NCBI GenBank assembly: GCA_038105035.1
Contig: JAYOBT010000003.1
Coordinates: forward strand, 4,379 to 68,378
Direction of reading: 5' to 3'
From: Candidatus Poseidoniales archaeon
GTDB lineage: Archaea > Thermoplasmatota > Poseidoniia > Poseidoniales > Poseidoniaceae
DNA length: 64,000 bases
Positions 9,013 to 58,732 of the stretch are shown here, piece after piece (the stretch's first letter is position 1; each line of letters starts with the position of its first letter). The notes below the pieces were generated by a model. The model made no database searches. It saw only the letters and a program-made list of their open reading frames with translations, and was not told the DNA's origin. The position numbers and the translations under genes are program-made.

Positions 9013-9833
9013 ACACGGTCAATGCAGTATGAGCAAGATTCACCAGGAACATAGGCTGGATGCAACTGTTCTTTCGGCGTCAAAGGTTCACGGCATGCAA
9101 AGCAAACCGTGGTACCTGTCTCGCTAAGATCTGGGAGGAGTGCAACGCGCTTGTCGAAGACGAAGCATTCCCCGTCCCAGTAATCTCCGCCGACTTGTTC
9201 AAAATAGCCAAGAATTCCTCCTTCGAGCTGCTTAATGTTGGTAAAACCAGCATCTTTCATGATGACACTGGCCTTTTCACAGCGTACGCCACCAGTGCAG
9301 AACATGACAATTTCTTTGTCCTTGAAAGATTCATCCATCTCTGAAACAGCCTGGGGGAAGGATCGAAACGTGTCAATCTCCAATTCAATGGCATTTTGGA
9401 AGGTTCCTAGACGAGTTTCGTATGTGTTTCGAGTGTCGAGCAGAACGACGTCATCCCGATTGAGGAGTTTTTCATGCAATTGAGCAGGAAGAATCCTTCC
9501 ATCATCCGATTCGACTCGATCGAAGTTTGGCATACCAACAGAGATGATTTCGTTCTTGAGACGTACATTCATGCGATTGAATGGTTGGTGTTCGGAATAC
9601 GATGTCTTGAAATCGATGTCAGAAAAACGTTCATCTTCGCAGAGATATGCTTGGAAACGTTCGATGTTCGGTTCAAGACCGGCCACAAAAATGTTGATTC
9701 CTTCATGGCTGAGGAGGATTGTTCCTTTCAATTCAAGTGCATCGCACTTCTGTTTGAACGGTTGACGCAGAGCATCACGATCGTCGAGCACAACAAACTT
9801 GTACCCAGCGATGTTAAGGTGCTGCTCCGTCAT
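8991..9833 (-). CDS. trhO: Rhodanese-domain tRNA uridine(34) hydroxylase TrhO (UPF0176/YceA family).
   Basis: Rhodanese active-site loop MFCTGGVRCEKAS. C-terminal Cys cluster CFACREPL...CSYC. Length and architecture fit TrhO/YceA. Confidence 0.8.
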   Translation of the reverse strand: MTEQHLNIAGYKFVVLDDRDALRQPFKQKCDALELKGTILLSHEGINIFVAGLEPNIERFQAYLCEDERFSDIDFKTSYSEHQPFNRMNVRLKNEIISVGMPNFDRVESDDGRILPAQLHEKLLNRDDVVLLDTRNTYETRLGTFQNAIELEIDTFRSFPQAVSEMDESFKDKEIVMFCTGGVRCEKASVIMKDAGFTNIKQLEGGILGYFEQVGGDYWDGECFVFDKRVALLPDLSETGTTVCFACREPLTPKEQLHPAYVPGESCSYCIDRVQSQTIH

Positions 9834-26558: not shown

Positions 26559-26650
26559 ACTAGGGGCTCTCGCTCACAGTATAAGTGCTCATGCATTTTA
26601 CCTGAGTAGCGAATCGACGGATTGATGTGCTGTCCAGTCGAGCGCGGGGC

Positions 26651-36151: not shown

Positions 36152-36196
36152 GGCCATCGTCGCACCTTTCATGTGCAAGAAGGTACAAGCGATAGC

Positions 36197-43872: not shown

Positions 43873-45159
43873 ATGGATAGGCGTCAGCAATTCACAGGTT
43901 CTTATCTCGAACTCTTTACCTCATCGATGTTGTTTTTCATTGCCTTGACATTCTTACTGGCTTGGCTAACGTTTTTTTCGCCATATGAATTGTTTGAAGA
44001 TGAAGAACGTCTTGCTATGATGAACTATGTTCTCATCACAATGTTTGCTCTGGGCCCTGTCATGGCCATTCTAGCAGGAATTGCGTTTGATACATTGCCG
44101 CTTGTGTACAGTGTCCCGTCCTTTGAACGTACAACAATGCGACATTTTCTCCAACTCAATGCACTTGGGCAATTGTTCATTCATGCTGGGATTTACATTG
44201 GTAACTGGAATTTGTTCATTGAATTCTCAGGAATCGGAATCACACTGATGTGCCTTGCATTGCTAACGCTAACTCCCTCATCGATTGACATTGTGAAACA
44301 GAAGAGCAACTCGGGCGAGGTGGGAATCTTTTCTTACTCACCCGGTCTTGTTCTTGTCTTCTGCTCTTTGTGTATTGCAGCCACATGGTTTATGCGCGAT
44401 GTTCCCGGCATGATCGAGGTAGGGGTCGCCTTCATCGTCGGGATTTTCTGCATGATGATGATGTCAACAGTCATGCTTTCGCATTTCAATCGAAGATTGG
44501 GTTGGAATGTAACAAACCCGAAAACCCTTCCAATTCGTTTCTTCATCCTGATTTTCCTAGGCATTGGCTACGTTGCAGCGAGCTTCCTCCGGGCGAGAGG
44601 AGCAATCTCAGAGGATTTGATTGACATCGGTTTTTCAGTGCTTCTTCTGAATGTGTTTTTGATGATGAATCCATTGAAGATCTTACGATACTCGATTGGT
44701 AAATTTGCGAAACCGCATTCTCGATTTGTATTCGTAGGATATCTGCTCCTACCCCTTCTCTCGCTCGTTTCAATCGCACCTATTTGGACGGGTCACGAAG
44801 GCATGGCGAACATTCAACCAGCACACTGGTTGTTGATTGCCTATTCTTGTTTCTTCGTGGTGTGTGGATTTGCTATCTATCTCCATGAGGACCATTTGCA
44901 TTATTCCCCTTCAACCAGGATTACACACTGGCACCTCGTCTTGATGTTCCTCGCCTGTGGTGTACTTATGACATGGTCGCTGTATGACGGGGCCGTTTTG
45001 CTTGATGGAGAATATTTGCCAGTTTATGTTTGGATTGGAACACAAAGTCTTGCATCGTTCTTGCTTGCCATCCTTTTTATTCGTCATACTGTTTTCCCAT
45101 CGGACAACTGGCATCGCATGCCTATGTTCTACGATCGACTCATGGAAAGTAAGGATTGA
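43873..45159 (+). CDS. Hypothetical polytopic membrane protein (about 12 TM helices).
   Basis: Twelve hydrophobic segments throughout, e.g. MLFFIALTFLLAWLTFF, VLITMFALGPVMAILAGIAF, GIGITLMCLALLTL, LVLVFCSLCIAATWF, LLLNVFLMMNPL, FVFVGYLLLPLLSLVSIAPIW. No recognised family. It lies 9 nt after sepF. Confidence 0.5.
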   Translation: MDRRQQFTGSYLELFTSSMLFFIALTFLLAWLTFFSPYELFEDEERLAMMNYVLITMFALGPVMAILAGIAFDTLPLVYSVPSFERTTMRHFLQLNALGQLFIHAGIYIGNWNLFIEFSGIGITLMCLALLTLTPSSIDIVKQKSNSGEVGIFSYSPGLVLVFCSLCIAATWFMRDVPGMIEVGVAFIVGIFCMMMMSTVMLSHFNRRLGWNVTNPKTLPIRFFILIFLGIGYVAASFLRARGAISEDLIDIGFSVLLLNVFLMMNPLKILRYSIGKFAKPHSRFVFVGYLLLPLLSLVSIAPIWTGHEGMANIQPAHWLLIAYSCFFVVCGFAIYLHEDHLHYSPSTRITHWHLVLMFLACGVLMTWSLYDGAVLLDGEYLPVYVWIGTQSLASFLLAILFIRHTVFPSDNWHRMPMFYDRLMESKD

Positions 45160-45713
45160 ACATCGTTAAGGAAATCGAGCGATGACTGGGTAAATCCCAA
45201 CACAGCCGGCTCCGTTCCTTCAATCAAATGAGCGTACTTTCCCATCATACCAGCCAAGTCATAGCCTCCTGCTTTACCAACCCATGAGTTTGATTCGATA
45301 AGTTCGATAAGAGCATCATCAGAAAAGTCTTCGATTTCAACAACAGCATGTTCGATGCTTGAGTGCCAATTGCCCATTGCATGCACCATCGTTGCGGACC
45401 ATACGCGGTGACGGCGCCCTCGCAAACGCAGAAGCATAGCAACTGCTTGTTCTTTCGAAGATGGTTTTCCCATTGCAGCTTGTTCATCATCGGGATCCTC
45501 GACAAGCGTATCCGATACGATTACGACATCGTATTCCTCATCGAATGAGACTGCATTTGCTTTACGTAGGGCCACTTCTTTCACCTGGCCAGAGAGAATT
45601 TGCCGAGGGACGGATTCATCCACACCTTCAATCGCAACTTGTTCGACGTTTGCAAAGCGCTCTCGAAGAATGGCCCCACGTCGCTCAGATGCAGAAGCAA
45701 GGAGGATGCGCAT
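45129..45713 (-). CDS. maf: Maf-family nucleoside triphosphate pyrophosphatase (septum formation protein Maf).
   Basis: MRILLASASERRGAILRE. DVVIVSDTLV. GKPSSKEQAVAMLLRLRGRRHRVWSATMV. Typical Maf motifs (S-x-R-R, GKP, L-S-G-x-x-H). ATG at 45713; the track start at 45722 is GTG. Confidence 0.8.
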   Translation of the reverse strand: MRILLASASERRGAILRERFANVEQVAIEGVDESVPRQILSGQVKEVALRKANAVSFDEEYDVVIVSDTLVEDPDDEQAAMGKPSSKEQAVAMLLRLRGRRHRVWSATMVHAMGNWHSSIEHAVVEIEDFSDDALIELIESNSWVGKAGGYDLAGMMGKYAHLIEGTEPAVLGFTQSSLDFLNDVQSLLSMSRS

Positions 45714-45810
45714 AACCAACACACGTCACATCAACCACATCACATTTTGCAAACAAATTGGGGGTGAATTTCAAGTGTTGAATCGTGTTCCTCCAATATG
45801 AGGCGGAACT

Positions 45811-46530
45811 ATGGACATCATGGAACGAATTCCCACACACGTTGAAGGACTCGATGAGAACATGCAAGGTGGCATTCCAAAGGGACATATCTGCATCGTC
45901 GCAGGTGCATCCGGTGCAATGAAGTCGAGTGTTACGTTCTCAATGCTTTACAACGCAGTCTTGTACGGGGAAACGAGTGGAATTTACGTCACGCTTGAAC
46001 AAGGAAAAGATTCCTTGCGGGCACACATGTCCAACATGGGTATGAACGTTGACGACGCTCGTGTGCGCAACCGTATTGCAATTATTGATTTATCAGACCT
46101 TCGCGTTCAACTCGACGAACAAGGGATGAGCAATCGTGTTGATTGGATGGGTCAGCTGATTAAGCAACTCACAAACTACAGAAAATCCATTGGCTTCGAA
46201 CTCCTTGTTTTCGACTCGCTTGGTGCGTTCTTCACACTCACCAAAATGGAGAATCCTCGTGATGAGATCTTCAGACTTTTCGAAGCAGTACGTCGTCTCG
46301 AACTTACTTCCTTCTTCATTTGTGAAATGACCGGTGAAAATCACAGGCAATTTGGTGAGTATGGCGTAGAAGATTATCTCTCTGACGGCGTTATTCACCT
46401 TGTTATGGATCGCAAAGAGGACGATGTACAACGAAAACTCGGCATCATTAAGATGCGTCACACTCGGCATGCACTGGGTTACAAGCCTTTCAATTGGAAA
46501 CAAGAAGAACAGCGATTTACTGTTCTTTGA
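45811..46530 (+). CDS. Single-domain KaiC/RecA-superfamily ATPase (archaeal KaiC-like).
   Basis: THVEGLDENMQGGIPKGHICIVAGASGAMKSS is the KaiC-like N-terminal loop plus Walker A. Walker B LLVFDSL. About 240 aa, typical of archaeal KaiC-like regulators. Confidence 0.72.
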   Translation: MDIMERIPTHVEGLDENMQGGIPKGHICIVAGASGAMKSSVTFSMLYNAVLYGETSGIYVTLEQGKDSLRAHMSNMGMNVDDARVRNRIAIIDLSDLRVQLDEQGMSNRVDWMGQLIKQLTNYRKSIGFELLVFDSLGAFFTLTKMENPRDEIFRLFEAVRRLELTSFFICEMTGENHRQFGEYGVEDYLSDGVIHLVMDRKEDDVQRKLGIIKMRHTRHALGYKPFNWKQEEQRFTVL

Positions 46531-48348
46531 TCATTCAACCGTTACTGATTTCGCAAGGTTGCGAGGACGGTCAACATCATTCTCCAAGGCCAATGCCGCT
46601 TGATAGGCAATGAGTTGTGTTGGAAGCACACTCAACAATGGTGTTAACATAGGCATCGTTGATGGAATTGGAATACTTACATCCGCTATTTCTGAGATAG
46701 CATCGCCTTCCTCGTGGATCAAGATGATCTTTGCACCGCGCGCTTTGCATTCATGAATGGCATTCAAGGTTTTATCTTGAACACCATCGTTCGGTGCAAT
46801 GACAACAACGGGTGAATTCTCTTCAATCAACGCAATTGGCCCATGCTTCATTTCACCGGCAGGGTAAGCGAGGCACGGAATGTAGGCGATCTCCATTAGT
46901 TTGAGCGCACCCTCAGATGCGACAGGAGATGAGATGCCTCTACCCAGAAACAAGACACTTTTCGCCTTTGTAACCAATCCAACTGCTTCTTCAATGGGAC
47001 CGGGTTTGTCAAGATAACTTCGTATTTTTTCTGGGAGTGTGCGCATTTCACGGATAATCGATTTCCCCTTCGTTTTAGAAAGATGGCGGCTTCGACCGAG
47101 TTGTAGAGCGAACAACGCTAAGGCTCCGACCATATTGGTAAACGCCTTTGTTGAAGCAACGGATTGTTCTGGCCCAGAATGTATGTATACGCCTTTGCCG
47201 CATTGCCTTGCTATACTTGAACCGACAACGTTCACGATGCCATAAACATCCGCCCCCTTGCGTTGAATTTCCTTGACTGCTGAGAGCGTGTCGGCCGTTT
47301 CTCCGGATTGAGAAATGGCTAAATGAAGTGCTTTAGGATTGATAACTGGGTCGTTGGCATTGAATTCACTCGCCACGTGAGATACCGCAGGAATTCTAGC
47401 CCATTGTTCAATCAGAATCTGGCCAATCTGAGCGGCATGCAAGGCCGTACCACAACCGATGAGGCGAACGTGCGGGAGTTGCGCGAGATCTTGTGGTTGT
47501 ACTTGCAAACCACCGAGTACGGATGTTCCCTCTGCATGACGTAAGCGACCCGAAATACAGTGCTGTAAGGATTGAGATTGTTCATGTATCTCCTTCAACA
47601 TGAAATGGGGATAATCCCCTAAATCGCTTTCTCCCCATTCCTCTTCTAACTGGAGATGGGAAGATTCAACCTCTTTGCCGTCGATTCGCATTACCTGAAG
47701 ATCTTGATCATCAACCTTTGCAATTTGTCCGTCTTCGAGCGCTACCAATTTGTCAGTATGCTCGCGAATCGCATGAGGATCGCTGGAGATGAACATCTCA
47801 TTCTTTCCCCGACCGATGATGAGAGGTGAACCATTCCGAGCGCACAGAACATAGTCGTAGTCTTCAAACAAAACACATACACCCCATGTCCCTCTCGCCA
47901 TTGAAAGAACACTCTGAAGCGCTTCAAGTGGCGCATCACCTTTCTCAAGTGCCATCGAGATGTAATGGCAGAACACTTCTGAATCGGTTTCAGAATTGAG
48001 TTGTACGCCTACGCTTTCAAGACGCTTACGAAGAGCATCCGAGTTTTGCAGAATACCATTGTGAACGATAGCCACTTTTCCATCGTTACTGAGATGAGGG
48101 TGCGCATTTTCTTTGGTGACCGCACCATGCGTAGCCCAACGCGTGTGGGCGATGCCCATCGAACCCTTGAATTTCGGTAATGACGAAGCCATTTCGGAAA
48201 TTTTTCCAATATCTTTGTACGATTGCAAATGTCCGTTCTTGACAACCACGCCACTTGAGTCATACCCGCGGTATTCAAGACGCATCAATCCTTTGACAAG
48301 CAAGGATGAGGCATTGCGGTGACCGATGTAGCCAAAGATTCCACACAT
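46531..48348 (-). CDS. glmS: Glutamine--fructose-6-phosphate aminotransferase.
   Basis: N-terminal nucleophile MCGIFGY. Two SIS domains. 605 aa. Confidence 0.95.
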   Translation of the reverse strand: MCGIFGYIGHRNASSLLVKGLMRLEYRGYDSSGVVVKNGHLQSYKDIGKISEMASSLPKFKGSMGIAHTRWATHGAVTKENAHPHLSNDGKVAIVHNGILQNSDALRKRLESVGVQLNSETDSEVFCHYISMALEKGDAPLEALQSVLSMARGTWGVCVLFEDYDYVLCARNGSPLIIGRGKNEMFISSDPHAIREHTDKLVALEDGQIAKVDDQDLQVMRIDGKEVESSHLQLEEEWGESDLGDYPHFMLKEIHEQSQSLQHCISGRLRHAEGTSVLGGLQVQPQDLAQLPHVRLIGCGTALHAAQIGQILIEQWARIPAVSHVASEFNANDPVINPKALHLAISQSGETADTLSAVKEIQRKGADVYGIVNVVGSSIARQCGKGVYIHSGPEQSVASTKAFTNMVGALALFALQLGRSRHLSKTKGKSIIREMRTLPEKIRSYLDKPGPIEEAVGLVTKAKSVLFLGRGISSPVASEGALKLMEIAYIPCLAYPAGEMKHGPIALIEENSPVVVIAPNDGVQDKTLNAIHECKARGAKIILIHEEGDAISEIADVSIPIPSTMPMLTPLLSVLPTQLIAYQAALALENDVDRPRNLAKSVTVE

Positions 48349-48357
48349 GGTATCATC

Positions 48358-51300
48358 TCAAAGATTGAATTTTTCCGAACAAATCGGGCAGGTGACTTGA
48401 GCTCGCATCAAATCCGTCACAGGGAAATTGGCATTGCATGAAGGGCAGACAGCTTGCCGCCGAAGAGGTGGCAAATCTGCTAACGGTGGAAGCGCACCAG
48501 GTTCGAGTTCAGCCACTGGTAGAGGAGGTAGGCCTTCTGCGACAGGAATGGAAGGCAATGGTGCTGGGTTCGGTAATGGAGGGAGCCCTTTAGAAACAAT
48601 ATCTGCAATTTCACGATCCTGTTTTCTCTTCATGCGGCGATTGAGTCGTGCATTCCCTTCCCCAGCAATGCTCTTGGCTTCAAGTTCTTCTGCAAGTGTG
48701 GGTTCTTCCATCTCAACCTGCACTGGAGGACTTATTGGTACTGTAGCGACTAGTTCTTCCTCTTCGTCGTCTTCCTCTACGTGTACGAGAATGGCAACTT
48801 CATCTTCCTCAAGGACGTCTGCGTCGACAACATCTTCTTTTTTGCCAGAACGAAGAGAGATGACCACGAGAACGAACAGAATGAAAAGGACTGAAATCAG
48901 ACCAAGGAAAATCCTCACCTTCATTTTGTCCGACCCTGGAAGAGGTTCAAGCAGTTGCTCAAGCAGGGACTTTGCTTCCCCTGCATCTTGTTCCTCATCG
49001 AGGAGGAATTTCTGCATAGAAAAACGTCCTGTTTCAGATACGAGGAACAGAATTCCGTCTTGAGCATTCATACTGTATCCGAGAACCCCGTTCTCAGATA
49101 CAATGTTTCCAAGACCAAATACGGGTTGCTCTTTTTCACTTGTCAGAATTCCATAACGAGCTACTTTTCCACGGACTGTGATTTCATCGTAAATGACCTC
49201 GACCATATCGTTACGTTGGTTGTACAAGACAATGGATGCGCCTGGTGCCTGAACACGATACATCTCCTCGTCCCAATCTCCTTGGGTCGCTATCGTAACA
49301 ATCTCCGCATTTTGACCAGAACCTTCAATCCATGAGGCAAAAATGGTCTTATCGTTATCGATTGTTAGTATCGCAATTTGAGCAGAGAATGCGTCATCTC
49401 CAATCGAAGACTGGTACGACCATGAAGTCGACATGAGATCACCTCTTGCATACATCAAGCCACTTCGCTCGACTCCGGTTACATCGTCTCGTTCCTGTTG
49501 GAAGAGAATATGCAAGACTTCGTCATCGAGTACGGTCGACAACTTGTCACCATCATCGGGATGAATCTCGACGTTTGCGAGATGCGTCTTTGGCTCACTC
49601 CAACTCGCACCCTCATCGGGAGTGGAAGAATACAAACTGAAAATCGAGGTGACATCACTCCATGAGCCACCCGTGGAAATATTACGGTAGTATCCTGACA
49701 AAACCATTGTTCCATCATCCTCGGCCAAATCAAGTCCCCAATATTTGCCCTCGGAAATTTTCAGTGGCGTGAGGTGCTTGTGTATGGGAAGCATCTGCCC
49801 TGCAGAAGAAAAAGAAGTCATAGCAACATTGCTCATGAAGTATCCTTGCTCGCTTTGTTCTCTGCTCGTCCAAGCAGCATGCACCAACCCGTCTTCTCTA
49901 AGGTGAACGTCAAGTTCTCCTTCCCAGTTATCCTCGACGAGTGTGTCTGTCAGGAGCAAAAGATTGTCGTTCAAAGATCGAACGTGAAGTTCTCCGTCAA
50001 TCGATGTAAACACGAGCGTTGAGGATTCTACGCCGACAAAAGCAACAGGGAATTCGCCATCGGATAAGGAAAGCGTGGTTGAACCTGCAACGGTTGATAC
50101 ATCGCTCACTACAACACTGAACGTTGTCTGACTGAATTCGCTTTCGACACCATCTCCCGTAAGTGTAGCACGGTACAATACCGCGCCGATCTCATCTGAT
50201 TGATGTCTAAAGTCAACGGTGGTGTATCCGGATTCACTGGTAGCACCTGGAACGAAACCAATTCGTTCTTCATCAATAAGTTGCCATCCAGCCTCAGGAA
50301 TCCAATACTCAAGTGCTATGTCAAGAGAGAATGCTTCGGATTTGCCAAGGTTGTCAATCCGTAGGTCAATTCTGTATTCTTCATCCACTAAGGGGACGAC
50401 TGGCAAGGTCGTAACGAAGCCAGGCAAGTAGCGTAGTACGGGTTGATCTGGTCGTTCCAAAATTTCGTAATCGATGGTGTACACATTGTCCGAGGTATCA
50501 GGGTCACCTTGTGCGTTGTTCGGATCCAGTTCAATCTGAACTTGATGCAACCCTGCAACGGTCGCAGACCAAAACAACGTGACTTGGACTGATTCTCCTT
50601 TTGGCAGATCAGGAATGAGGCCTTGCGAAGGATAGATTTCAGATTCATCCCCCGGAGCAACCAGTCGAACAAAGATATCCGAGGCATCAGCATCACCTGC
50701 ATTGTAGACCTCAAACTTGATCTCAAGTAAACTTCCTTGATACGCCTCTTCTGCTGGCATGCCGCGATTCAGCACCTCAAAATCACCAACAAATCGCAAC
50801 GATGGCGCAGGGTCAACGTTGTCGATTGTGTAACTCCTTTGAACGATTTTTGATTCTTTTCCGGAGTTGTTCACCATGCGTACAGAGAGTTCTCTGAATC
50901 CATCATCAACTTCGGTTGTATCCCAGTTGAACGACCAAACTGACTTCCCATCTTCGCCTGGATTGTTATTGGTTTGAATTGTACTACCAAACAACCATTC
51001 GCCATCATCGACACGGTACTCGATTCGATCATGCTCCACGCCTTCAACTTCTCCTTTGACTTCAACCGTACCTGTCAAGGAGTTTCGCGAGATGGGCGTA
51101 TCTATCAGGATACTTTCTCGAGAAACCTTGAACTTGCGATAAGCCACGTTGGAAACGTTTCCATCATCGTCGGAGGCTTTAGCATGTAGAAGTAAGAACT
51201 TCTCATTCGAGCTATAATCGACCCATGAATCTTGAACTTCAACATCGAGGAACCAACTTTCCATGGTACCATTGGCTTCAGTCCAATCCAGCAGCATCTT

Positions 51301-53205
51301 TGGACCACGATTGTTGAAATGTTGCTCAATGTACACCTCAACACGTTGATAGGCGATTTCGGTCATGTTGACTTCCCCTGAAATGCGAGTGAATGAATCG
51401 CTCAGCAACCACGTTCCATTGGAAGGATAACTTACGTTGACATCGCTCTTTGATTCTTTCACTACGAACCCGTTGTCGCATGGAACGCCCTCGATTGAAT
51501 TCACGGCACATGCTGCGTCGATGATTCCAAATCCGTACTTTTCATTCCATCTCTCGGACAAGGTTTCGTCGTATGGGTCTCCTCTTTGTTCGGAACTGTT
51601 TCGAAGAATATCCTTTACTTCCTGAGGGCTGAGGGACGAATCGGCTTCCAACATGAGCGCAACAATTCCCGAAGCAATCGGAGTGGCCATGCTCGTCCCT
51701 GACTTCGAATCGTATTGGTCGTCCGCAAGACCCGTATCTCCCGGTATCGGTAATGATGTTCCGTAGGTCGCTGAGATAATGTTGTGGCCATACGATGTGA
51801 TGTCTGGTTTGAGTTCATCCCATTCATCATCATCTCCATCGCTAATTCGTGGGCCCCAATTTGAGAAATCAGAATGCTCGTCGTCATCGCGTAGGATTGT
51901 GTTCTTGTCGTTGACTGAGCCGACTGTGATTGCACCGTCTGCACTTCCAGGGGACGGTACTCTGTTGCTACCATCGTTACCGATGGCTACAACACAGATG
52001 ATACCTTCAGCAGTGGCTTGGTTAATGAGTGATGCCTCAGCGCTTGTTCCATTATCCCCCTGATCGCCTGCATTAAGAGGAGTCCCCACAGAGCCGTACG
52101 ACATGGATGCGACCTGAATACCACGGTATGTCGAGTTGATGCCCCAGTCCGTATCCTTGTTGTTGATCATCCATTGGATTCCAGCTAAACTCGCTTGCGA
52201 ATTGGTTCCACCGCTGTCTGTTAAGACCTTGATATCAACCAAAGCAGCACCAGGAGCAGTTCCTCTGTGAGTACGGGTTGTATCGCCTGTGCCCAATGCA
52301 GAACCTGCTACGTGCGTTCCGTGACCGTTTCCATCGTCTGGATCGGCGGAGCCATCTGGATTCGGATTTGGAGAAGTCGCATCAAAACCTGCGACCCACT
52401 TCTGGTCGCTGTAAGTTGATGCATCTGCATCGGGTGCATCATCGATGTCATCAAAATCATTGAGGGAACGATGTTCATTATCGACACCAGTGTCCATCAC
52501 TGCAATAACGACCCCTGTTCCATAGTAACCCAACTCATGTGCTGTGTTTCCGTATTCCTGTGAAGGACGTGCCAGTGCTGCTTTTGAAGCAACATCGTTC
52601 AATGGAGCCATGACGTTTTGCATCTCAACAACGACAACTCCCTCAAGGTGATAAATATCCATGAGAGCGGATACAGGGACCTTGTCGACAACGATGCTGT
52701 CAATACTCCGCAGTACTTCGAACCAAGCGCCATTCTCAATACCAATCCAACCATGGGCATCGAGCGTTGTCTTCAGAGAAGTGATCTCTGGCTCTGAAGG
52801 ATGCCACGCGTAATCGACGACGATAGCCACCGTTTTGCGACCATCTGGGCCAATGATGGCCGTAGGTGACGCTGAATCCATGCCGTCAAGAACACGCTGT
52901 AGTCGATCATCCATCCCATTCCAGTCAAGGTCTGGACCGTAGGCCTGCCACCATCCGTAATCCAAGGAAGCGGCTCGACCTTGACGGTCGTACATTCGAA
53001 GTGGGCGGTCGCACAACTCATCACCACACATGAGTGGAGGGAGCCCTTCGACCATAATCGGAGGCGCATGTGTAGGTTCTTGCACCTCAGGAAGCGTTTC
53101 TATTGCCTGAACTTGTGATGCCATAGGCAACAAAAGCATGAGCAAAACCAAGAACAATGCCTGCCTTGGATTCGAATAACGAGACCTTCCGCTCATAATC
53201 GCCAT
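48358..53205 (-). CDS. Giant (1615 aa) membrane-anchored subtilisin-like serine peptidase (S8). It has C-terminal beta-rich domains, a TM helix, a poly-acidic stretch, GLPPLP repeats and a terminal C4 zinc ribbon.
   Basis: Signal MAIMSGRSRYSNPRQALFLVLLMLLLPMASQVQA. Catalytic triad motifs VIAVMDTGVD (Asp), HGTHVAGS (His), GTSMATPIASG (Ser). C-terminus GLISVLFILFVLVVISLRSGKKED (TM), EEDEVAILVHVEEDDEEEE, KGLPPLPNPAPLPSIPVAEGLPPLPVAELEPGALPPLADLPPL, CPSCNANFPVTDLMRAQVTCPIC. Confidence 0.9.
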   Translation of the reverse strand: MAIMSGRSRYSNPRQALFLVLLMLLLPMASQVQAIETLPEVQEPTHAPPIMVEGLPPLMCGDELCDRPLRMYDRQGRAASLDYGWWQAYGPDLDWNGMDDRLQRVLDGMDSASPTAIIGPDGRKTVAIVVDYAWHPSEPEITSLKTTLDAHGWIGIENGAWFEVLRSIDSIVVDKVPVSALMDIYHLEGVVVVEMQNVMAPLNDVASKAALARPSQEYGNTAHELGYYGTGVVIAVMDTGVDNEHRSLNDFDDIDDAPDADASTYSDQKWVAGFDATSPNPNPDGSADPDDGNGHGTHVAGSALGTGDTTRTHRGTAPGAALVDIKVLTDSGGTNSQASLAGIQWMINNKDTDWGINSTYRGIQVASMSYGSVGTPLNAGDQGDNGTSAEASLINQATAEGIICVVAIGNDGSNRVPSPGSADGAITVGSVNDKNTILRDDDEHSDFSNWGPRISDGDDDEWDELKPDITSYGHNIISATYGTSLPIPGDTGLADDQYDSKSGTSMATPIASGIVALMLEADSSLSPQEVKDILRNSSEQRGDPYDETLSERWNEKYGFGIIDAACAVNSIEGVPCDNGFVVKESKSDVNVSYPSNGTWLLSDSFTRISGEVNMTEIAYQRVEVYIEQHFNNRGPKMLLDWTEANGTMESWFLDVEVQDSWVDYSSNEKFLLLHAKASDDDGNVSNVAYRKFKVSRESILIDTPISRNSLTGTVEVKGEVEGVEHDRIEYRVDDGEWLFGSTIQTNNNPGEDGKSVWSFNWDTTEVDDGFRELSVRMVNNSGKESKIVQRSYTIDNVDPAPSLRFVGDFEVLNRGMPAEEAYQGSLLEIKFEVYNAGDADASDIFVRLVAPGDESEIYPSQGLIPDLPKGESVQVTLFWSATVAGLHQVQIELDPNNAQGDPDTSDNVYTIDYEILERPDQPVLRYLPGFVTTLPVVPLVDEEYRIDLRIDNLGKSEAFSLDIALEYWIPEAGWQLIDEERIGFVPGATSESGYTTVDFRHQSDEIGAVLYRATLTGDGVESEFSQTTFSVVVSDVSTVAGSTTLSLSDGEFPVAFVGVESSTLVFTSIDGELHVRSLNDNLLLLTDTLVEDNWEGELDVHLREDGLVHAAWTSREQSEQGYFMSNVAMTSFSSAGQMLPIHKHLTPLKISEGKYWGLDLAEDDGTMVLSGYYRNISTGGSWSDVTSIFSLYSSTPDEGASWSEPKTHLANVEIHPDDGDKLSTVLDDEVLHILFQQERDDVTGVERSGLMYARGDLMSTSWSYQSSIGDDAFSAQIAILTIDNDKTIFASWIEGSGQNAEIVTIATQGDWDEEMYRVQAPGASIVLYNQRNDMVEVIYDEITVRGKVARYGILTSEKEQPVFGLGNIVSENGVLGYSMNAQDGILFLVSETGRFSMQKFLLDEEQDAGEAKSLLEQLLEPLPGSDKMKVRIFLGLISVLFILFVLVVISLRSGKKEDVVDADVLEEDEVAILVHVEEDDEEEELVATVPISPPVQVEMEEPTLAEELEAKSIAGEGNARLNRRMKRKQDREIADIVSKGLPPLPNPAPLPSIPVAEGLPPLPVAELEPGALPPLADLPPLRRQAVCPSCNANFPVTDLMRAQVTCPICSEKFNL

Positions 53206-53266
53206 ACCTCACCACAAATCGATATATTTTGATGGTATCGCTCCAACGTGTATTGATTAACCCAGA

Positions 53267-54367
53267 TTATCCATGCTTTGGCCAGGACAGATGTTTCGGT
53301 TCTTTTGAGCATTGAAGTTGAGGCCCTGTACGGCGCTCGACCATACCTAGTGGAGCCAAACATACAGGGCAGTCTCCTGCTTCTGCAATATGTTCCATCC
53401 ACGCTATTCGGGTTTCTGCCTCATCTCCTGCTTCCTTGAGTTTTCGCAATGGTTCGCGCAAGTTCTTGGGGACATCGAGTCCGAGTTCTGTCCAAGGGTC
53501 GTCAATATCGGACACGTCGACCATCGATGATTTAATTTGATCAAATCCTGCTCTTGAATTACCGAATCCTTTGGGGCCTCCATCGACAACACCCATCGGA
53601 TAAGGCCCCCCTCTTGCGACGAGGGGAAGCAATGCATAGGCAGCGACGAACCCTCCGATGTGTGCCATGTGGGCAACTGTGGAATATCCTCCGAGGCCAA
53701 CCGTATTGAACGCTCGAATCAACTCAAATCCAAAATAAAACAAGGCTATGATGGTAACTGGCCATGGTCGAATCAGAATGAGTGGGAACGGGATTTCGTC
53801 CCGAGGCCAACCAGAAAGATAGGCTCCAAGTAGGCCATATGCTGCACCAGACGCTCCCCAAGATGGTGTTCCTGAGCCACTGTTGAAGAGGACCCAGGCA
53901 ATTGAACCTCCGAGCAATCCTGTCACATAGACGATTGTGAACCGTTTTGTGCCCAACCGCTGCTCAAGTGGAATTCCAACCAAGGCGATGACAAGGACGT
54001 TTCCAAGAACGTGGGTCACGTCGCTCATACTGTGTAGGAAGCCTGCTGTGAACAGGGTTGGGTAATAGACAACGGAATTCAATCGTTCAGGAATCAACCA
54101 AAAATCAAACCACACAAAGCGGAATTCAAGACCGTACGAAGCCATCACAACAAAGGCATACTGGACAATGTAACCCAACAATAATCCAACGGAAATCCCC
54201 AGTGCAATCGGTGTCTTATTGCGGAATGAGTAAGCAATTGGAGACACAACTGCGAAAATCCACAAGCACAAGATGATCCATTCAGAGGCTCCGAATGTTG
54301 TAAGATACAACTGCCCCATACATCCCCGACCATTTGCTCGACTATGGGTCTTGTCCTGTCGTAGCAT
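53267..54367 (-). CDS. Rhomboid-family intramembrane serine protease with a C-terminal cytoplasmic Cys-rich (zinc-ribbon-like) extension.
   Basis: GASGAAYGLLGAYL (GxSG catalytic Ser) and AHIGGFVAAYAL (catalytic His) in TM helices. C-terminal CPVCLAPLGMVERRTGPQLQCSKEPKH. It lies 61 nt upstream of, and co-oriented with, the S8 subtilase. Confidence 0.85.
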   Translation of the reverse strand: MLRQDKTHSRANGRGCMGQLYLTTFGASEWIILCLWIFAVVSPIAYSFRNKTPIALGISVGLLLGYIVQYAFVVMASYGLEFRFVWFDFWLIPERLNSVVYYPTLFTAGFLHSMSDVTHVLGNVLVIALVGIPLEQRLGTKRFTIVYVTGLLGGSIAWVLFNSGSGTPSWGASGAAYGLLGAYLSGWPRDEIPFPLILIRPWPVTIIALFYFGFELIRAFNTVGLGGYSTVAHMAHIGGFVAAYALLPLVARGGPYPMGVVDGGPKGFGNSRAGFDQIKSSMVDVSDIDDPWTELGLDVPKNLREPLRKLKEAGDEAETRIAWMEHIAEAGDCPVCLAPLGMVERRTGPQLQCSKEPKHLSWPKHG

Positions 54368-54396
54368 TCATTCATGTGTGTGTTTTGGATTGCACT

Positions 54397-55629
54397 ATGA
54401 GCGAAGCGCTGTTGTCTCTGAACGGCGTTTCCATTCGTCGCGGTTCCTCGGTCGTTCTCAACGACTTCAACCTTGAAGTCTCAAGCGGACAACTCGTCCT
54501 TTTGAGCGACAGGAATGGTGCTGGAAAGTCGACCATGATCGAAGCAGCAGCAGGTCTTTTACCTCTTGAAAAAGGAGAAATTCTCCACAATGGGGAAATT
54601 CTTCTCGATGCATCTGGACGATCAAAAAGGCCAAAATTTCCCTTTGGATTGACGTTGCAATCCGATGGATGTGTTGGAAGTTTACGCGTCGAAGAACATC
54701 TTTTCAACGCCCTCGACCTTGCAGGCGGCCGTATCGAAATCGATGCATGGCTCGAGCGGTACAATCTGGCTCATCGAAGACATGATTTGATTGCACATTT
54801 GTCTGGCGGCCAACGACGCAAAGTGGCCATGCTCGCTGGAATGTTACCTGGATTTGTTAGCCAAACACCCCGTATTTTACTGTTGGACGAACCGGCAGCT
54901 GGACTTGACGCAGCATCCCGTTCGTCACTGGTTGAGGATTTGCATGAACTTCGGCATCGAGGAAACGCTATTCTCCTTGCAAGTCATCACTCTGATTTTA
55001 CGGCTTGTGCAACGCATATTCTAACTGAGAATAAAATGGAAACAAACGAAGCCACAGAGAAATCAGATCTAATGAATCGGGACTTGAAATCAACGTCTCA
55101 TCAAAGCAATTCTGCATTTCGAACAGGATTTTTGCTCAACCAACGTACGCTATCTACACTCGCAAGCAATGGTATAGCCGGATTCCTGACGCTCGGGATT
55201 CTGCTCGCACTCGTCGATGCTTCAGCCGTTGATTCTTCTTTGCTGCAAGCATCTGGTTTGTTCCTGAGTGCAGCTTTCGCAGCAGGGCTCGTCGGCGATA
55301 ACATGGTTTCGATGTTGCATGAACACAGAGCTTTGGATTGGTGGAAAGCCCATCGACAAGGCATTCCAAATTCGTACATCCACGGTCTTGTCCTCGGTTC
55401 AGGATTGACAGCATTGACGCAGTTAGGATTTGATGTTGCCGTTTCATGGCCTCTGTTGGCCATTGGTGGCTTGCTCACAATCTCGACCATGATGATGGTC
55501 CGATGGATGGATCTTGCCGCCTCGCGATTGGCTCGACCACGTGCTGCATACACTCGAATTCTGACACCAATTCTGATTCTTCCTTTCGCACTGCTCGTTC
55601 AATGGATTACCGATTCTGGTCTATTGTAA
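54397..55629 (+). CDS. ccmA: Cytochrome c maturation ABC exporter: CcmA ATPase fused to a CcmB-like membrane domain.
   Basis: Walker A DRNGAGKST. Signature LSGGQRRKV. Walker B ILLLDEPAAGLD. H-loop LLASHH. Then about 200 aa with 4-6 TM helices (GIAGFLTLGILLALV, LFLSAAFAAGLVG, LVLGSGLTALTQLGFDVAVSWPLLAIGGLL, ILTPILILPFALLVQWI). ATG at 54397; the track start has a non-homologous extension. Confidence 0.72.
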   Translation: MSEALLSLNGVSIRRGSSVVLNDFNLEVSSGQLVLLSDRNGAGKSTMIEAAAGLLPLEKGEILHNGEILLDASGRSKRPKFPFGLTLQSDGCVGSLRVEEHLFNALDLAGGRIEIDAWLERYNLAHRRHDLIAHLSGGQRRKVAMLAGMLPGFVSQTPRILLLDEPAAGLDAASRSSLVEDLHELRHRGNAILLASHHSDFTACATHILTENKMETNEATEKSDLMNRDLKSTSHQSNSAFRTGFLLNQRTLSTLASNGIAGFLTLGILLALVDASAVDSSLLQASGLFLSAAFAAGLVGDNMVSMLHEHRALDWWKAHRQGIPNSYIHGLVLGSGLTALTQLGFDVAVSWPLLAIGGLLTISTMMMVRWMDLAASRLARPRAAYTRILTPILILPFALLVQWITDSGLL

Positions 55630-55667
55630 ATGCAACTATTGAAAGCAAAAGGTTCGGTGGAACAAAT

Positions 55668-56360
55668 ATGACCAAGCGATTGTCAGAGATGATTCTCTTG
55701 GTTGGTTTCATTGGTATTGGAGCAACCTTAGGTCTTGCGTTTCTCAAAGCACCTAGTGTTTCCATCAATGCCTTTGAATCACCTGACGCACAACGGATTT
55801 TCTATTGGCACGTTCCTGCTGCATGGGCTGCATTCATTGCCTTTGGCTTCCTTTTCTTGGGTTCAGCATTGTGGTTTTTCAAGCGTTCCGACCTTGGTTG
55901 GAGAATGCATGTTGCAGGCGCACAGGCTGGACTCGCCACCGGTTTGATGACAGTCTGGAGCGGTATGGTTTGGGGTTCCGCAGAATGGGGAGTTCCTTGG
56001 GATTGGACCGACGTTCGGCTGAACACATTTGGGCTACTCACATTCCTAGCATTGTTTCTCGTTCTGGGTAGGCAAGCGCAGCCCGATGGGGTCGAAACAC
56101 GCGATACCTTCTCGACATTCGGCCTGTTTGGATTTGTACTCGTTCCAGTTACATACGTTGCAACCCGGCTCTGGCAAATTCGACATCCTGGTCCAGTGAT
56201 CGGTGGTGGTGAAAGTGGAAGTCTTAATGGAGAAATGGCCCTTATTCTCCTCATTGGTGCAATCTCGTTCACAGTTTTCATTATCGGTCATGTCCTGATG
56301 AGCATGCGCATTACATCGCTCGAACAACGATTGGAAAGGATTCAAGAATCAAAGGATTAG
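55668..56360 (+). CDS. ccmC: Heme exporter protein CcmC (WWD-domain heme-handling protein).
   Basis: Trp-rich WWD motif WSGMVWGSAEWGVPWDWTDVRLNT (WGxxWxWDxRL). Conserved His in YWHVPAAW. Six TM helices. ATG at 55668, 38 nt after the ccmAB stop. Confidence 0.85.
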   Translation: MTKRLSEMILLVGFIGIGATLGLAFLKAPSVSINAFESPDAQRIFYWHVPAAWAAFIAFGFLFLGSALWFFKRSDLGWRMHVAGAQAGLATGLMTVWSGMVWGSAEWGVPWDWTDVRLNTFGLLTFLALFLVLGRQAQPDGVETRDTFSTFGLFGFVLVPVTYVATRLWQIRHPGPVIGGGESGSLNGEMALILLIGAISFTVFIIGHVLMSMRITSLEQRLERIQESKD

Positions 56361-56368
56361 GTGTAAAC

Positions 56369-56527
56369 ATGGCGGAAGGAATGACGTATCTTGCTGTGGC
56401 ATATCTCGGCATGCTCGTAGCCATCGGCCTTTGGACCTGGACGGTCTTTGCAAGAAGCAATGACCTTGAGAAAAGGATTGAGGCTGTTGAACGAAGCTTC
56501 GAAAAGGTTGGTCACGAACAGGAGTGA
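56369..56527 (+). CDS. ccmD: Heme exporter protein CcmD-like small single-pass membrane protein (52 aa; below the ORF-track length cutoff).
   Basis: Manual translation of ATG 56369 to TGA 56525-56527 gives MAEGMTYLAVAYLGMLVAIGLWTWTVFARSNDLEKRIEAVERSFEKVGHEQE. This is one TM helix plus a charged tail, positioned immediately after ccmC as in system I operons. Confidence 0.55.
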   Translation: MAEGMTYLAVAYLGMLVAIGLWTWTVFARSNDLEKRIEAVERSFEKVGHEQE

Positions 56528-56532
56528 GTTCA

Positions 56533-57600
56533 ATGAGTCGAGGGCTTGGTGGTGACTTTTGCCTCGTATGCGGAAACGAGCCACCTCTGTTCACCGACAA
56601 AATGTGTGAACCATGTACACGAAAACGAACCAAACTCGCCGAAGTACCTGAAAATACGAATTTTACGCAATGTGCTCGGTGCGGATTGATCGACATCCAA
56701 GGCCGTTGGGTCAACATTCCAGAAGATACATTGTGGGACGAATTAATTCAACGAAACGTTTCGTTTCATGAACGTGCAGAAGAGGTTGGTTTAGGTTTCG
56801 AACCACGTACTGTTTCTGACCGACATACTTTGCTCCATATGCAGATGGAAGGCGTCATTGACGATCTCTTGTACACTGAAGAACACACCATGAGGGCCCG
56901 TCGTTCAAACGGTGTGTGTCTGACATGCACAAGGCGGGCTGGAAACTATTTCGAGGCGACTGTGCAACTTCGCTCAACTGGTCGCCGACTCGAAGAAGGT
57001 GAACTCAACAACCTGCGAGCAAGTCTTGACAATGTTATCGAACAACTAAGCGATGATCCAATGTTTTTCATCACCAATGAGGGTCCTGTAACGGGTGGCT
57101 ACGATGTGGTGATGGGATCGAAGGGACTTGCTCGAGCATGGGGTCGTCATTTGATTGAACATTGGGGAGGGCAAGTCACAGAAACCAATTCCACAGTCGG
57201 GCGAAAAGATGGTGTTGATGTTACACGGCTGACACTGCTCTACCGCAAACCAGGATACGATCTCGGAGATGTCGTTCGTTGGCGTGGCGAGTTGTGGCGG
57301 CCAAGTTCTTGGAGCAAAGATGGTGCCATCATGGAGCGTATATCTCGCCAAGAACGTACAGGTGCTACATGGAGAGACTTGGACGGGGTGAAAGTGTTGT
57401 CACAGATGGACGACCACATGGTTGTCGATATTCTCAACCGCGATGATTCAGCAGCGGAATTCTTGGACCCAAACACATGGCAAATGACCTCGGTGCGTCT
57501 TCCTTGGGACTATGACGGTGCAGCACAATTGCGACTCGCTCGAGTTGATGGCGAATACATCGCCTTGCACGATATGGCTCTTGACCACTCCAATCGATAG
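56533..57600 (+). CDS. nmd3: Nmd3-family protein (archaeal homologue of the 60S ribosomal subunit export adaptor).
   Basis: N-terminal double CxxC zinc-binding region CLVCGNEPPLFTDKMCEPC...CARCG...CLTC, followed by the Nmd3 OB/SH3-like region. About 355 aa. ATG at 56533; the track start at 56524 is GTG. Confidence 0.78.
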   Translation: MSRGLGGDFCLVCGNEPPLFTDKMCEPCTRKRTKLAEVPENTNFTQCARCGLIDIQGRWVNIPEDTLWDELIQRNVSFHERAEEVGLGFEPRTVSDRHTLLHMQMEGVIDDLLYTEEHTMRARRSNGVCLTCTRRAGNYFEATVQLRSTGRRLEEGELNNLRASLDNVIEQLSDDPMFFITNEGPVTGGYDVVMGSKGLARAWGRHLIEHWGGQVTETNSTVGRKDGVDVTRLTLLYRKPGYDLGDVVRWRGELWRPSSWSKDGAIMERISRQERTGATWRDLDGVKVLSQMDDHMVVDILNRDDSAAEFLDPNTWQMTSVRLPWDYDGAAQLRLARVDGEYIALHDMALDHSNR

Positions 57601-57634
57601 GAGCCCATATGAAGGTCGAACCTTCCATAGAACC

Positions 57635-58732
57635 ATGGCCGATGAGACGCTCAACATCGACGACTTGTCTCGACAATTGGATTCTGAAGGCATGATTGGG
57701 TTCACACAGTCGTTTGTTTCCGATCTCGAACATGGCTTCTCAGCGATTGACGAACAACACCTACCATGGCTGCAACAACTCAAGTCCAATGTTTGGAACG
57801 GTGTACTCTGCTTCGGAATGGGTGGCTCTGCTGCCGGGGGTGATTTCTTAGCACGAATTGCAGATGCTTCTGGCTCTAAACCGTTCATTGTGCACAGAGG
57901 CTATGAGCTGCCATCCTGGTGGACATCGGAATGGTTGATTCTCGCTACATCGCACAGTGGCAACACAGAAGAGACCATCGCTGCAACTGAAACTGCCCTC
58001 AAGCAGGGCGCTACTGTTGTGGTCATTGCAACGGGTGGTATCCTTGCAGGGTTCTGCGAATTGTACGATAACTGTCATCTCATTCCATCGGTTGGTGGTC
58101 AACCACCTCGTACCGCTTTCGGGCATTTGTTCTCTCGTCAACTCGCTTTGATGGAACATCTTGGATTGATCCCCCAACAAGCGGATGATGAACGAGAAGC
58201 CATGCTCGTTCGTCTTGAGTATGCCTGTCAATCCAATGATTTTCGCAATGCATCCGGCGTACCATTACTCGAACTTGCTATGGCTTTACGAGAACACCCA
58301 ATTGCATTGCTCGGACCAACGGAAATGCAACCAGCCTTGGTACGATGCAAGAATCAATTGAATGAAAATTCTGGGCGCTTTGCTCGTGTTGGAGTTGTTC
58401 CTGAAATGAATCACAATGAAATTGTCGCATGGGGAGGGGTGTCCGATGATGCTGACCCAGAACGAGAAAATCAAGCTACGCTGATACTCACATGGGATGG
58501 AATGAACGCACGCGTACGCCGTCGAATCGATTGGATGATTGAGCACACGCCAACCGATTATGCATGGAGAATTCATGGAGAAGGAACCTCATTACTCGAA
58601 GCACTTCTTCATCACTGTATCGTCATGGATTGGCTGACCATCGCACTTGCATTGCTTCATGGTAAAGACCCAGCAGCCATCCGCCCCATTCAAGCACTGA
58701 AGGGCTACCTTGCCGATGACGCATCAATATAG
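57635..58732 (+). CDS. Bifunctional phosphoglucose/phosphomannose isomerase (archaeal SIS-domain PGI/PMI).
   Basis: SIS motif LCFGMGGSAAGGDF. LILATSHSGNTEETI. Second SIS-like half. The track start at 57512 overlaps nmd3; ATG at 57635 gives about 365 aa, typical for the family. Confidence 0.75.
   Translation: MADETLNIDDLSRQLDSEGMIGFTQSFVSDLEHGFSAIDEQHLPWLQQLKSNVWNGVLCFGMGGSAAGGDFLARIADASGSKPFIVHRGYELPSWWTSEWLILATSHSGNTEETIAATETALKQGATVVVIATGGILAGFCELYDNCHLIPSVGGQPPRTAFGHLFSRQLALMEHLGLIPQQADDEREAMLVRLEYACQSNDFRNASGVPLLELAMALREHPIALLGPTEMQPALVRCKNQLNENSGRFARVGVVPEMNHNEIVAWGGVSDDADPERENQATLILTWDGMNARVRRRIDWMIEHTPTDYAWRIHGEGTSLLEALLHHCIVMDWLTIALALLHGKDPAAIRPIQALKGYLADDASI

Follow-up and report, generated by a model that had tools for sequence, protein, structure and literature searches.

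A rhomboid protease and an S8 subtilase with conserved zinc-ribbon-like C-terminal ends in a syntenic block of Poseidoniales

Do a rhomboid intramembrane protease and a giant S8 subtilase form a functional module when their genes lie side by side in a marine archaeon? This question is raised by a 64-kb stretch of DNA from a Poseidoniaceae (Marine Group IIa, MGIIa) archaeon (contig JAYOBT010000003.1; the whole stretch of 64,000 nucleotides is called the window below), which has a GC content of about 49%. In agreement with this origin, the top matches of both proteins were to metagenome-assembled genomes assigned to Poseidoniaceae, Poseidoniales or Marine Group II. A preliminary description of the window had placed the rhomboid directly upstream of a 1615-amino-acid (aa) subtilase, on the same strand and with a gap of 61 nt. 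The coordinates of the open reading frames (ORFs) agreed exactly with this arrangement, the subtilase ORF following 61 nt downstream of the rhomboid ORF with both on the minus strand:

53267..54367, minus strand: rhomboid gene, ORF of 366 aa, PF01694
48358..53205, minus strand: S8 subtilase gene, ORF of 1615 aa, PF00082

The results confirmed the earlier observation with small corrections, and the two protein architectures are real, conserved and previously undescribed. Both architectures and all zinc ligands were kept across the order Poseidoniales (about 235 full-length subtilase and 117 rhomboid homologues), and the loci with conserved architectures spanned 38-69% GC. Judged from these alignments, both predicted zinc motifs are well beyond chance expectation and under selection, and the architecture is an order-wide trait. 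As to why the two genes are neighbors, the reading that we favor, at a probability of roughly 50%, is that each is a core gene with a promoter of its own and that both sit in a frozen syntenic block; one would encode a tethered exoprotease with a docking tail and the other a housekeeping rhomboid with a regulatory zinc domain. We found no literature joining Marine Group II with rhomboids, and none describing the transmembrane (TM) segment and zinc-ribbon tail of the subtilase or its pairing with a rhomboid. A tRNA scan and an Rfam scan of the 64-kb window gave no matches.

The rhomboid and its C-terminal domain

In the profile search, the rhomboid gave a PF01694 (Rhomboid) match of 81 bits against a cut-off of 22.6, and the 120 homologues among the matches listed were all from Poseidoniales. 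The protein likely starts at M17 (nt 54319), the commonest start in the homologues. Its parts, defined with an AlphaFold2 (AF2) model and an alignment, were as follows:

53612..54310, minus strand: rhomboid membrane core, residues 20-252, with 7 TM helices (AF2 model and alignment)
53270..53611, minus strand: C-terminal domain, residues 253-366, with a linker, a DPW motif, helices and a zinc ribbon (AF2 model)
53279..53371, minus strand: zinc-ribbon-like motif C333PVC336-x16-C353-x5-H359..W362P363 (alignment)

The AF2 model (mean predicted local distance difference test, pLDDT, 76) contained helices at residues 27-49, 54-77, 104-138, 140-161, 172-186, 201-224 and 233-251, that is, an extra N-terminal helix plus the canonical six-helix core. 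An alignment of 27 rhomboid homologues showed that the segments G171-A-S173-G, A235-H236-IGG and H119-VLG-N123 were invariant, with H119 and N123 located in TM2, S173 in TM4 and H236 in TM6. The GxSG/H dyad, described earlier as intact, was indeed present in the window as S173 and H236 and invariant in the homologues. The identity of an iRhom-type pseudoprotease was rejected on the same intact and invariant dyad. Using Foldseek, we found that the core matched about 25 GlpG chains of E. coli and H. influenzae with a probability of 1.0 and target-normalised TM-scores of 0.55-0.69; sequence and profile searches against PDB (phmmer, hmmsearch) returned nothing relevant, being too insensitive for the GlpG relationship. 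The rhomboid shares with E. coli GlpG the six-helix core (target-normalised TM-score 0.6-0.69), the Ser-His dyad and the HxxxN of TM2; GlpG has an N-terminal cytoplasmic domain and 6 TM helices, whereas the rhomboid of the window has an added helix (TM0) and a C-terminal zinc domain. These domain and catalytic-site observations were made directly, and the product of the gene is predicted from its sequence to be an active rhomboid intramembrane serine protease.

After TM6, the rhomboid continues for 114 residues, which form a low-confidence GGP-rich linker and then a folded domain (about residues 284-364, pLDDT 87-93) with 3-4 helices and a beta-hairpin bearing the Cys/His motif. To our knowledge, TM6 of rhomboids ends in the cytoplasm in every known structure, and from the position of the end of TM6 in the AF2 model the C-terminal domain is predicted to be cytoplasmic. 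The domain was conserved into Marine Group IIb (MGIIb), and the zinc-ribbon-like motif was present in 117 of the 120 listed homologues, with C333, C336 and C353 invariant and H359 kept in at least 90% of the sequences. The end of the protein had been written as CPVC...QC....H; the motif itself stands, and the number of residues between the last Cys and the His is five rather than four. One lineage of 38% GC (L086) carries Cys in place of H359, an exchange that fits the metal-ligand role expected of this position and gives indirect support, at the level of sequence, for zinc binding by the motif. With the isolated C-terminal domain, no Pfam family reached threshold (a Rad50 zinc hook match of 17 bits was not meaningful), and a fold search against PDB gave no significant match, the best E value being 0.75, with only weak zinc-ribbon look-alikes in Fpg, TopoI and RNAP; a likeness to topoisomerase-type zinc ribbons was unsupported. 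The zinc domain probably has a regulatory or partner-binding role.

Cytoplasmic zinc fingers of haloarchaeal rhomboids are known as N-terminal AN1 fingers (PMC4343526), and no natural substrate of an archaeal rhomboid is known (PMC11985538). This also applies to Rho1/RhoII of Haloferax volcanii, which influence cell-surface properties (PMC4343526, PMC11985538). Like the rhomboid of the window, H. volcanii RhoII has a cytoplasmic zinc-binding domain, but this is an N-terminal AN1 finger, whereas the rhomboid of the window combines a C-terminal helical domain and a C2-C-H ribbon, belonging to no Pfam family, with an extra TM helix (1+6).

The subtilase, its anchor and its tail

The subtilase gave a PF00082 (Peptidase_S8) match of 168 bits against a cut-off of 21.8 (E = 3e-49), and full-length homologues measured about 1540-1750 aa throughout Poseidoniales. 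From the N-terminus, where the start is possibly M4, its features were:

53101..53205, minus strand: signal peptide, residues 1-35, hydrophobic at 17-35 (h-region) with a VQA-I cleavage-like site
52522..53100, minus strand: conserved N-terminal domain, residues 36-228 (about 190 aa)
51526..52521, minus strand: Peptidase_S8 catalytic domain, residues 229-560 (PF00082)
50476..51105, minus strand: Ig-like Big_7 (residues 701-775) and CARDB (residues 808-910) domains (Pfam)
48976..50475, minus strand: ectodomain residues 911-1410 (about 500 aa), about 0.36 identity across orthologues
48913..48975, minus strand: juxtamembrane motif LLEQLLEPLPGSDKMK, conserved in MGIIa
48850..48912, minus strand: single TM anchor IFLGLISVLFILFVLVVISLR, residues 1432-1452, Kyte-Doolittle 3.17, followed by RSGKK
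48361..48849, minus strand: predicted cytoplasmic tail, residues 1453-1615 (163 aa), with an acidic stretch, a basic helix, LPPLP repeats and a zinc ribbon
48379..48447, minus strand: terminal C4 zinc ribbon CPSC-x15-CPIC (C1587-x2-C1590-x15-C1606-x2-C1609)

No twin-arginine motif was found in the signal peptide, and we infer export by the Sec route. Among 22 diverse orthologues, the S8 domain was the most conserved region (identity 0.63, with D238, H295, N410 and S505 conserved), followed by the N-terminal domain (0.56) and the terminal ribbon (0.44, all four Cys conserved in at least 90%); the TM sequence (0.29) and the acidic stretch (0.24) were poorly conserved. The N-terminal domain had no Pfam match and, because of its position ahead of the S8 domain, is a probable propeptide or inhibitor domain. 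In the ectodomain, Big_7 (PF17957) scored 25.7 bits and CARDB (PF07705) 40.7 bits, and a Pfam search of residues 911-1410 gave no match.

The subtilase had been described as a single-pass type-I membrane protein with a cytoplasmic tail. A signal peptide and a single TM segment (residues 1432-1452) were found as this requires, and from the signal peptide and the positive-inside rule we infer the type-I topology, with the tail in the cytoplasm. The protein is most likely a surface-tethered, cell-bound exoprotease of protein-degrading photoheterotrophs; 1-4 extracellular S8 peptidases were predicted in every metagenome-assembled genome of Marine Group II (Orellana et al. 2019, PMC6864105). Ahead of the membrane, the juxtamembrane motif LLEPLPGSDKMK follows a pattern conserved in MGIIa, LLxPLPG(S/D)xExK, and the subtilases of MGIIb carry (I/L)RxxLGxDxxT(F/W) at this position instead. 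In 173 distinct TM segments, Gly made up 13% of the outer and 3.4% of the inner half, and small residues 31% and 16%, respectively; at least one Gly was present among the outer ten residues in 84%, and Pro was absent. Helix-destabilising residues, to be looked for according to the preliminary description, are therefore there. Sorting by the PGF-CTERM/archaeosortase route was rejected, as there is no PGF motif and 163 residues follow the TM segment.

The tail contains the acidic run VEEDDEEEEL in an acidic stretch of net charge -16, the basic helix RLNRRMKRKQDRE, and two exact copies of GLPPLP with related LPPL motifs, so the poly-Glu and GLPPLP repeats reported ahead of the ribbon were recovered. 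The C4 ribbon at the C-terminus was recovered as well, with a spacing of x15 in place of the x17 originally given. All four ribbon Cys were kept in 116/116 complete close homologues, in 109/109 further ones and in 15 distant ones. The spacer measured 15 residues in all 116 complete close homologues and 15 or 14 in the 109 further ones, which include Thalassarchaeaceae (MGIIb); this gives 15 residues in 189 homologues (116 + 73) and 14 in 36. One subtilase clade has the 14-residue spacer instead of 15, and two divergent homologues (P0252 and P0259) have a first knuckle of CxC rather than CxxC (VTCECGATF and VTCNCGAIF). Together with the three Cys of the rhomboid, these results bear out the conservation of the zinc-ribbon cysteines in orthologues. 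Pfam searches of the tail returned only sub-threshold zinc-ribbon matches (zf-Tbcl_FmdE, DUF7560 and Zn_ribbon_4/MJ0042-type; 17-19 bits against cut-offs of 23-30).

An exhaustive HMMER search with subtilase residues 600-1615 found solely this family, including full-length relatives at 26-42% identity, and every distant homologue had the same order of signal peptide, S8 domain, TM segment, acidic stretch, basic helix, Pro-rich repeats and terminal ribbon. An extracellular protease with an intracellular zinc ribbon had been called atypical, and this design was indeed met solely in this subtilase family. Among the ORFs of the window and 89 loci, which represent one neighborhood repeated and not whole genomes, the subtilase and rhomboid families were the only TM proteins found to end in a zinc ribbon. 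Zinc-ribbon-like ends as such are common in the window (about 3 of 36 large ORFs); a 280-aa ORF at 8991-9833 (minus strand), for example, has a C-terminal CxxC-x19-CxxC (CFAC...CSYC).

Cytoplasmic zinc ribbons joined to membrane proteins by flexible linkers act as partner-docking switches in GltJ (ZnR-linker-GYF) and ZitP (PMC11135422). Like the subtilase, these proteins with MJ0042-type ribbons (PF13717) have a C4 ribbon CxxC-x15-19-CxxC, a Pro-rich or acidic linker, a TM segment and an extracytoplasmic domain. Their modules are N-terminal on type-II proteins, whereas the module of the subtilase is C-terminal on a protein of type-I topology and has no GYF domain, and its score with the MJ0042-type Pfam model is below threshold (17 vs 30 bits). 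GltJ and ZitP provide the best analogy for the subtilase tail, with mirrored orientation, and by this analogy the conserved tail is most likely a docking module for a cytoplasmic partner.

Gene order and the rhomboid–subtilase spacer

A rhomboid-profile scan of GTDB species genomes gave 80 loci (L001-L080, all MGIIa), and 11 contigs added via divergent subtilases extended the sample to L001-L091; adjacency was counted over the informative loci, the window included. In 84 of 87 such loci, the gene immediately preceding the subtilase, in the same orientation, was the rhomboid, so the adjacency is conserved in relatives across Poseidoniales. However, the same sample showed a nine-gene block, pgi–nmd3–ccmC–abc followed across a divergent junction by rho–sub–glmS–kaiC-like–maf, that was equally syntenic: pgi-nmd3 was kept in 72/72, nmd3-ccmC in 79/79, abc-rho in 85/85 and rho-sub in 80/81, with various pairs ranging from 56/56 to 85/85. 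Because the whole block is as syntenic as the rho-sub pair, adjacency cannot separate functional coupling from inherited gene order at this sampling.

In the window, the block covers about 45100-58700, and its order and orientation were kept in both Poseidoniaceae and Thalassarchaeaceae, at GC contents of 38-69%; synteny so frozen is unusual for functionally unrelated genes. The abc gene (ABC/ccmA-like ATPase-permease) diverges from the rhomboid across a spacer of about 77 nt (54320-54396 with corrected starts) and is followed by ccmC. All 85 loci in which both genes were scored have the abc-rho junction, with a 159-aa ORF lying between them in L091. A locus deposited as Salinimicrobium sp. 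(Bacteroidota; L080, CAXRAI010000045.1) carries a complete Poseidoniaceae block with 53% rhomboid identity and a layout near-identical to that of L078, and is probably a mis-binned archaeal contig.

The pair was found split in two cases. In L058 (10010-21040, isolate SP339; rho+ abc+ ccmC+ nmd3+ pgi+ glmS- sub-), the rhomboid is still beside abc, and sub-glmS lies 6 kb off on the opposite strand. In the L087/L090 clade (MGIIb), the subtilase is preceded by LemA and a gene for a protein of about 280 aa resembling alpha/beta-hydrolases, not by a rhomboid. This arrangement was seen at 7084-8003 in L087 and at 5153-6004 in L090. In L090, the hydrolase-like gene runs four bases into the subtilase ORF as called, which suggests a different operon partner there. 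The TM segment and ribbon of the subtilase were retained in both splits, and the rhomboid, visible only in L058, retains its module there.

The spacer between the two genes contains the following features:

53206..53266, minus strand: rhomboid–subtilase spacer, 61 nt, holding the Shine-Dalgarno-like sequence GGTGAGGT
53228..53239, minus strand: cis element GATACCATCAAA, 12 nt, located 22 nt upstream of the subtilase ATG

Across the loci, the spacer ranged from 21 to 284 nt, with a median of 83. The element belongs to a family with the pattern GATA[CG]NNTCAAA and the consensus GGATAG(A/G)(A/C)TCAAAGG, and the pattern had a single match in the 64-kb window. Of the 80 MGIIa loci, 75 contain it within the rhomboid–subtilase spacer and on the coding strand, with a second match, elsewhere, only in L049; the distance to the subtilase ATG is usually 22-37 nt, and the flanking bases are unconserved. 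MGIIb loci have a TTATA box, typically 35-45 nt upstream of the subtilase, and a Shine-Dalgarno sequence of the GGAGGT type. Conserved as it is, the GATA[CG]NNTCAAA sequence is a probable gene-specific promoter or operator of the subtilase.

In many genera, a GC-rich hairpin directly follows the rhomboid stop codon and may be a terminator or an RNA-stability element. Such hairpins are perfect in L019, L023, L049, L062, L081, L086 and others, for example CCCCAAGCCCCTTTAGGGGCTGGGGAG and TTCCGGCCTTAAGGCCGGAA, and are absent from the clade of the window itself. The conserved element or TTATA box and the frequent hairpin together suggest that the rhomboid and the subtilase are separate transcription units. 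As regards an operon, the spacer holds an element or TATA box and often a hairpin, and the adjacency of 80/81 is no better than that of unrelated pairs, but in the few divergent loci it persists longer than sub-glmS.

Explanations for the pairing and their meaning

We applied a mirror-tree analysis to 9 neighboring genes in 41 loci, using partial correlation of distance matrices. The partial r was 0.09 for rho-sub and 0.01 for the rhomboid C-terminal domain versus the subtilase tail, a null result of low power; unrelated neighbors scored above rho-sub, for example ccmC-nmd3 with 0.60. The zinc modules themselves also differ, the subtilase having a C4 MJ0042-like ribbon and the rhomboid a helical domain with a C2-C-H ribbon. 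A shared cytoplasmic interaction of the zinc ribbons, which the preliminary description had offered as an alternative, gained nothing specific from these results.

Other candidate clients of the rhomboid were found in the window, which codes for four further large surface proteins at 36173-39697 (+), 39722-43306 (+), 11649-16742 (-) and 26627-29170 (+). Each has a signal-peptide-like N-terminus, a large ectodomain and an apparent cytoplasmic tail. Three of the four have a clear single TM helix followed by basic residues and an acidic or Pro-rich tail; the protein at 36173-39697 has a similar C-terminus, which is below the hydrophobicity threshold. Two of the tails end in GLPxGWTMEQWxYYGxQ(W/Y)L, one in the Trp-rich DGWTQGADGVWWWQNQQDGSWWYKDANG and one in ELPPLSAPP, and these ends may be docking signals; no zinc ribbon was found in any of the four. 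Since at least three other type-I anchored proteins are predicted in the window, the subtilase is not the sole plausible client of the rhomboid. Known rhomboid substrates show a helix-weakening outer TM segment. The Gly-rich outer TM half and type-I topology of the subtilase fit such a substrate; these features are unspecific and fit helix packing too, and a Gly-rich outer half was also present in one other surface protein of the window. The idea that the rhomboid cleaves the subtilase anchor thus agrees with the TM features, although nothing specific singles out the subtilase over at least three other, equally plausible clients.

Under the favored reading of two core genes, each with its own promoter, the proximity of the rhomboid and the subtilase reflects synteny of the whole region throughout the order and not a dedicated two-gene module. 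The rhomboid, with its 7 TM helices (the extra one and the six-helix core), would carry a cytoplasmic helical and Cys2-Cys-His/Cys zinc domain of about 110 aa for regulation or partner binding, and would most plausibly act as a general intramembrane protease for many type-I anchored surface proteins, the subtilase being one plausible client among several. The subtilase would be exported as a pre-pro-enzyme through Sec and tethered at the cell surface by its single C-terminal TM segment, and its tail would bind a cytoplasmic partner through which the enzyme is positioned, assembled or turned over. Several points weigh against this reading. The few divergent lineages with changed flanks (glmU inserted, glmS and kaiC lost, or the upstream genes replaced by PPK2) still keep both rho followed by sub and the abc-rho junction, and the rho-sub junction may be somewhat more stable than sub-glmS, which is mild positive evidence for coupling. 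The two genes lie on the same strand with a short spacer, and the subtilase combines a type-I topology with the Gly-rich outer TM half seen in rhomboid substrates. Moreover, conserved cytoplasmic zinc modules on both proteins would be a coincidence, and the mirror-tree null carries low power.

Dedicated shedding, the idea with which the locus was first described, is possible but doubtful. The rhomboid would cut the subtilase specifically, in the outer part of the TM segment or immediately outside it, and free an ectodomain of about 1430 aa into the seawater, while the TM stub and zinc-ribbon tail stay behind and the cytoplasmic domain of the rhomboid recruits or gates the substrate. The same-strand adjacency (84/87) holds across the order with subtilase identity down to about 27% and survives changes of both flanks, the type-I orientation is the one cut by rhomboids, the outer half of the TM segment shows an excess of Gly and other small residues, and a conserved motif lies next to the membrane. 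There is also a precedent in the rhombosortase RrtA, which processes VesB, a secreted serine protease of Vibrio cholerae, at its C-terminal TM signal (PMC3237569, PMC6219818). This rhomboid-family enzyme, paired with TM-ended secreted hydrolases including serine proteases that carry GlyGly-CTERM, is the nearest functional precedent; it operates in bacteria, in a many-to-one manner and in connection with type II secretion, whereas the present host is an archaeon. On the other hand, unrelated neighbors are equally syntenic, a separate promoter-like element precedes the subtilase, hairpins occur after the rhomboid stop codon, the pair has been broken twice with the tail unchanged, and the rho-sub partial r is 0.09. 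In addition, the identity of the TM segment is only 0.29, with no conserved motif of the P4-P1-P2' type. The rhomboid was rejected as a rhombosortase (TIGR03902, 18.8 bits against a cut-off of 84), and the subtilase was rejected as a GlyGly-CTERM substrate, since it has PLPGSDKMK, a TM segment and a 163-aa tail and lacks a Gly/Ser-rich motif and a short basic end. A regulated shedding module is thus consistent with the adjacency, the cysteines and the TM residues, and is opposed by the wider synteny, the promoter-like element, the splits and the mirror-tree result. We consider it unlikely that the zinc domain of the rhomboid captures the zinc-ribbon/LPPLP tail as a cytoplasmic exosite and feeds the Gly-rich TM segment to the active site.

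Quite improbable in our view is a non-proteolytic complex held by the TM helices, the zinc modules or both, in which the rhomboid would be an adaptor, chaperone or regulator, or in which both tails share a partner. It would account for the conserved zinc modules on both proteins and for a rhomboid C-terminal domain that is confidently folded in prediction and has no assigned function; iRhom-ADAM17 structures were among the fold matches of the rhomboid core, YqgP acts as an adaptor of FtsH (PMC7231995), and zinc ribbons can dock partners (PMC11135422). In both iRhom2-ADAM17 (PDB 8snl) and YqgP-FtsH, a member of the rhomboid family is in physical association with a protease anchored in the membrane. 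However, iRhoms are inactive whereas the present rhomboid is catalytically intact, and ADAM17 and FtsH are metalloproteases; the two zinc modules are of different types with a partial r of 0.01, and the pair is separable. Regulated intramembrane proteolysis, in which the tail with its zinc ribbon, cut loose by the rhomboid or some other protease, would signal the availability of extracellular protein in the cytoplasm, is a highly improbable explanation. The tail is long, with conserved ordered elements and at its end a fold of a nucleic-acid- or protein-binding type, but rhomboids cut near the outer leaflet, so the stub would stay in the membrane, and a second protease, of which there is no indication, would be required. 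The ribbon is also a minimal C4 ribbon of 23 residues with no DNA-binding domain attached, and no supporting context was found.

Type-I anchored subtilases exist in eukaryotes, namely furin/PC7, site-1 protease and Plasmodium SUB2, and several of them are shed. They share with the Poseidoniales subtilase the external S8 domain, the single C-terminal TM segment and a localising tail; their tails are short sorting signals without zinc ribbons, and there is no evolutionary link beyond the S8 domain. Unlike them, the Poseidoniales protein is archaeal, 1615 aa long, and carries Big_7, CARDB and an uncharacterised ectodomain of 500 aa.

Marine Group II archaea are abundant uncultured heterotrophs of the surface ocean, thought to live on proteins and lipids. 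Since the subtilase occurred in every Poseidoniales lineage sampled, it is a strong candidate for the principal protease on their cell surface. Retention on the cell or shedding would make a difference to how the products of the enzyme are shared among organisms in the water. The conserved tail implies an inside-out or outside-in coupling of a kind not described for prokaryotic exoproteases. If the cytoplasmic exosite were real, the main extracellular protease of the most abundant planktonic Euryarchaeota would be released under regulation, and the pair would supply the first natural substrate for any archaeal rhomboid, selected through its cytoplasmic tail and not its TM segment. Even at a modest prior probability, the locus offers a concrete and testable candidate substrate pair for an archaeal rhomboid, and its order-wide synteny warns against taking adjacency in these genomes as a guide to function. 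A rhomboid (1+6 TM) with a C-terminal zinc domain and an S8 protease with a TM segment and a zinc-ribbon tail would be new even if the two genes are unrelated in function.

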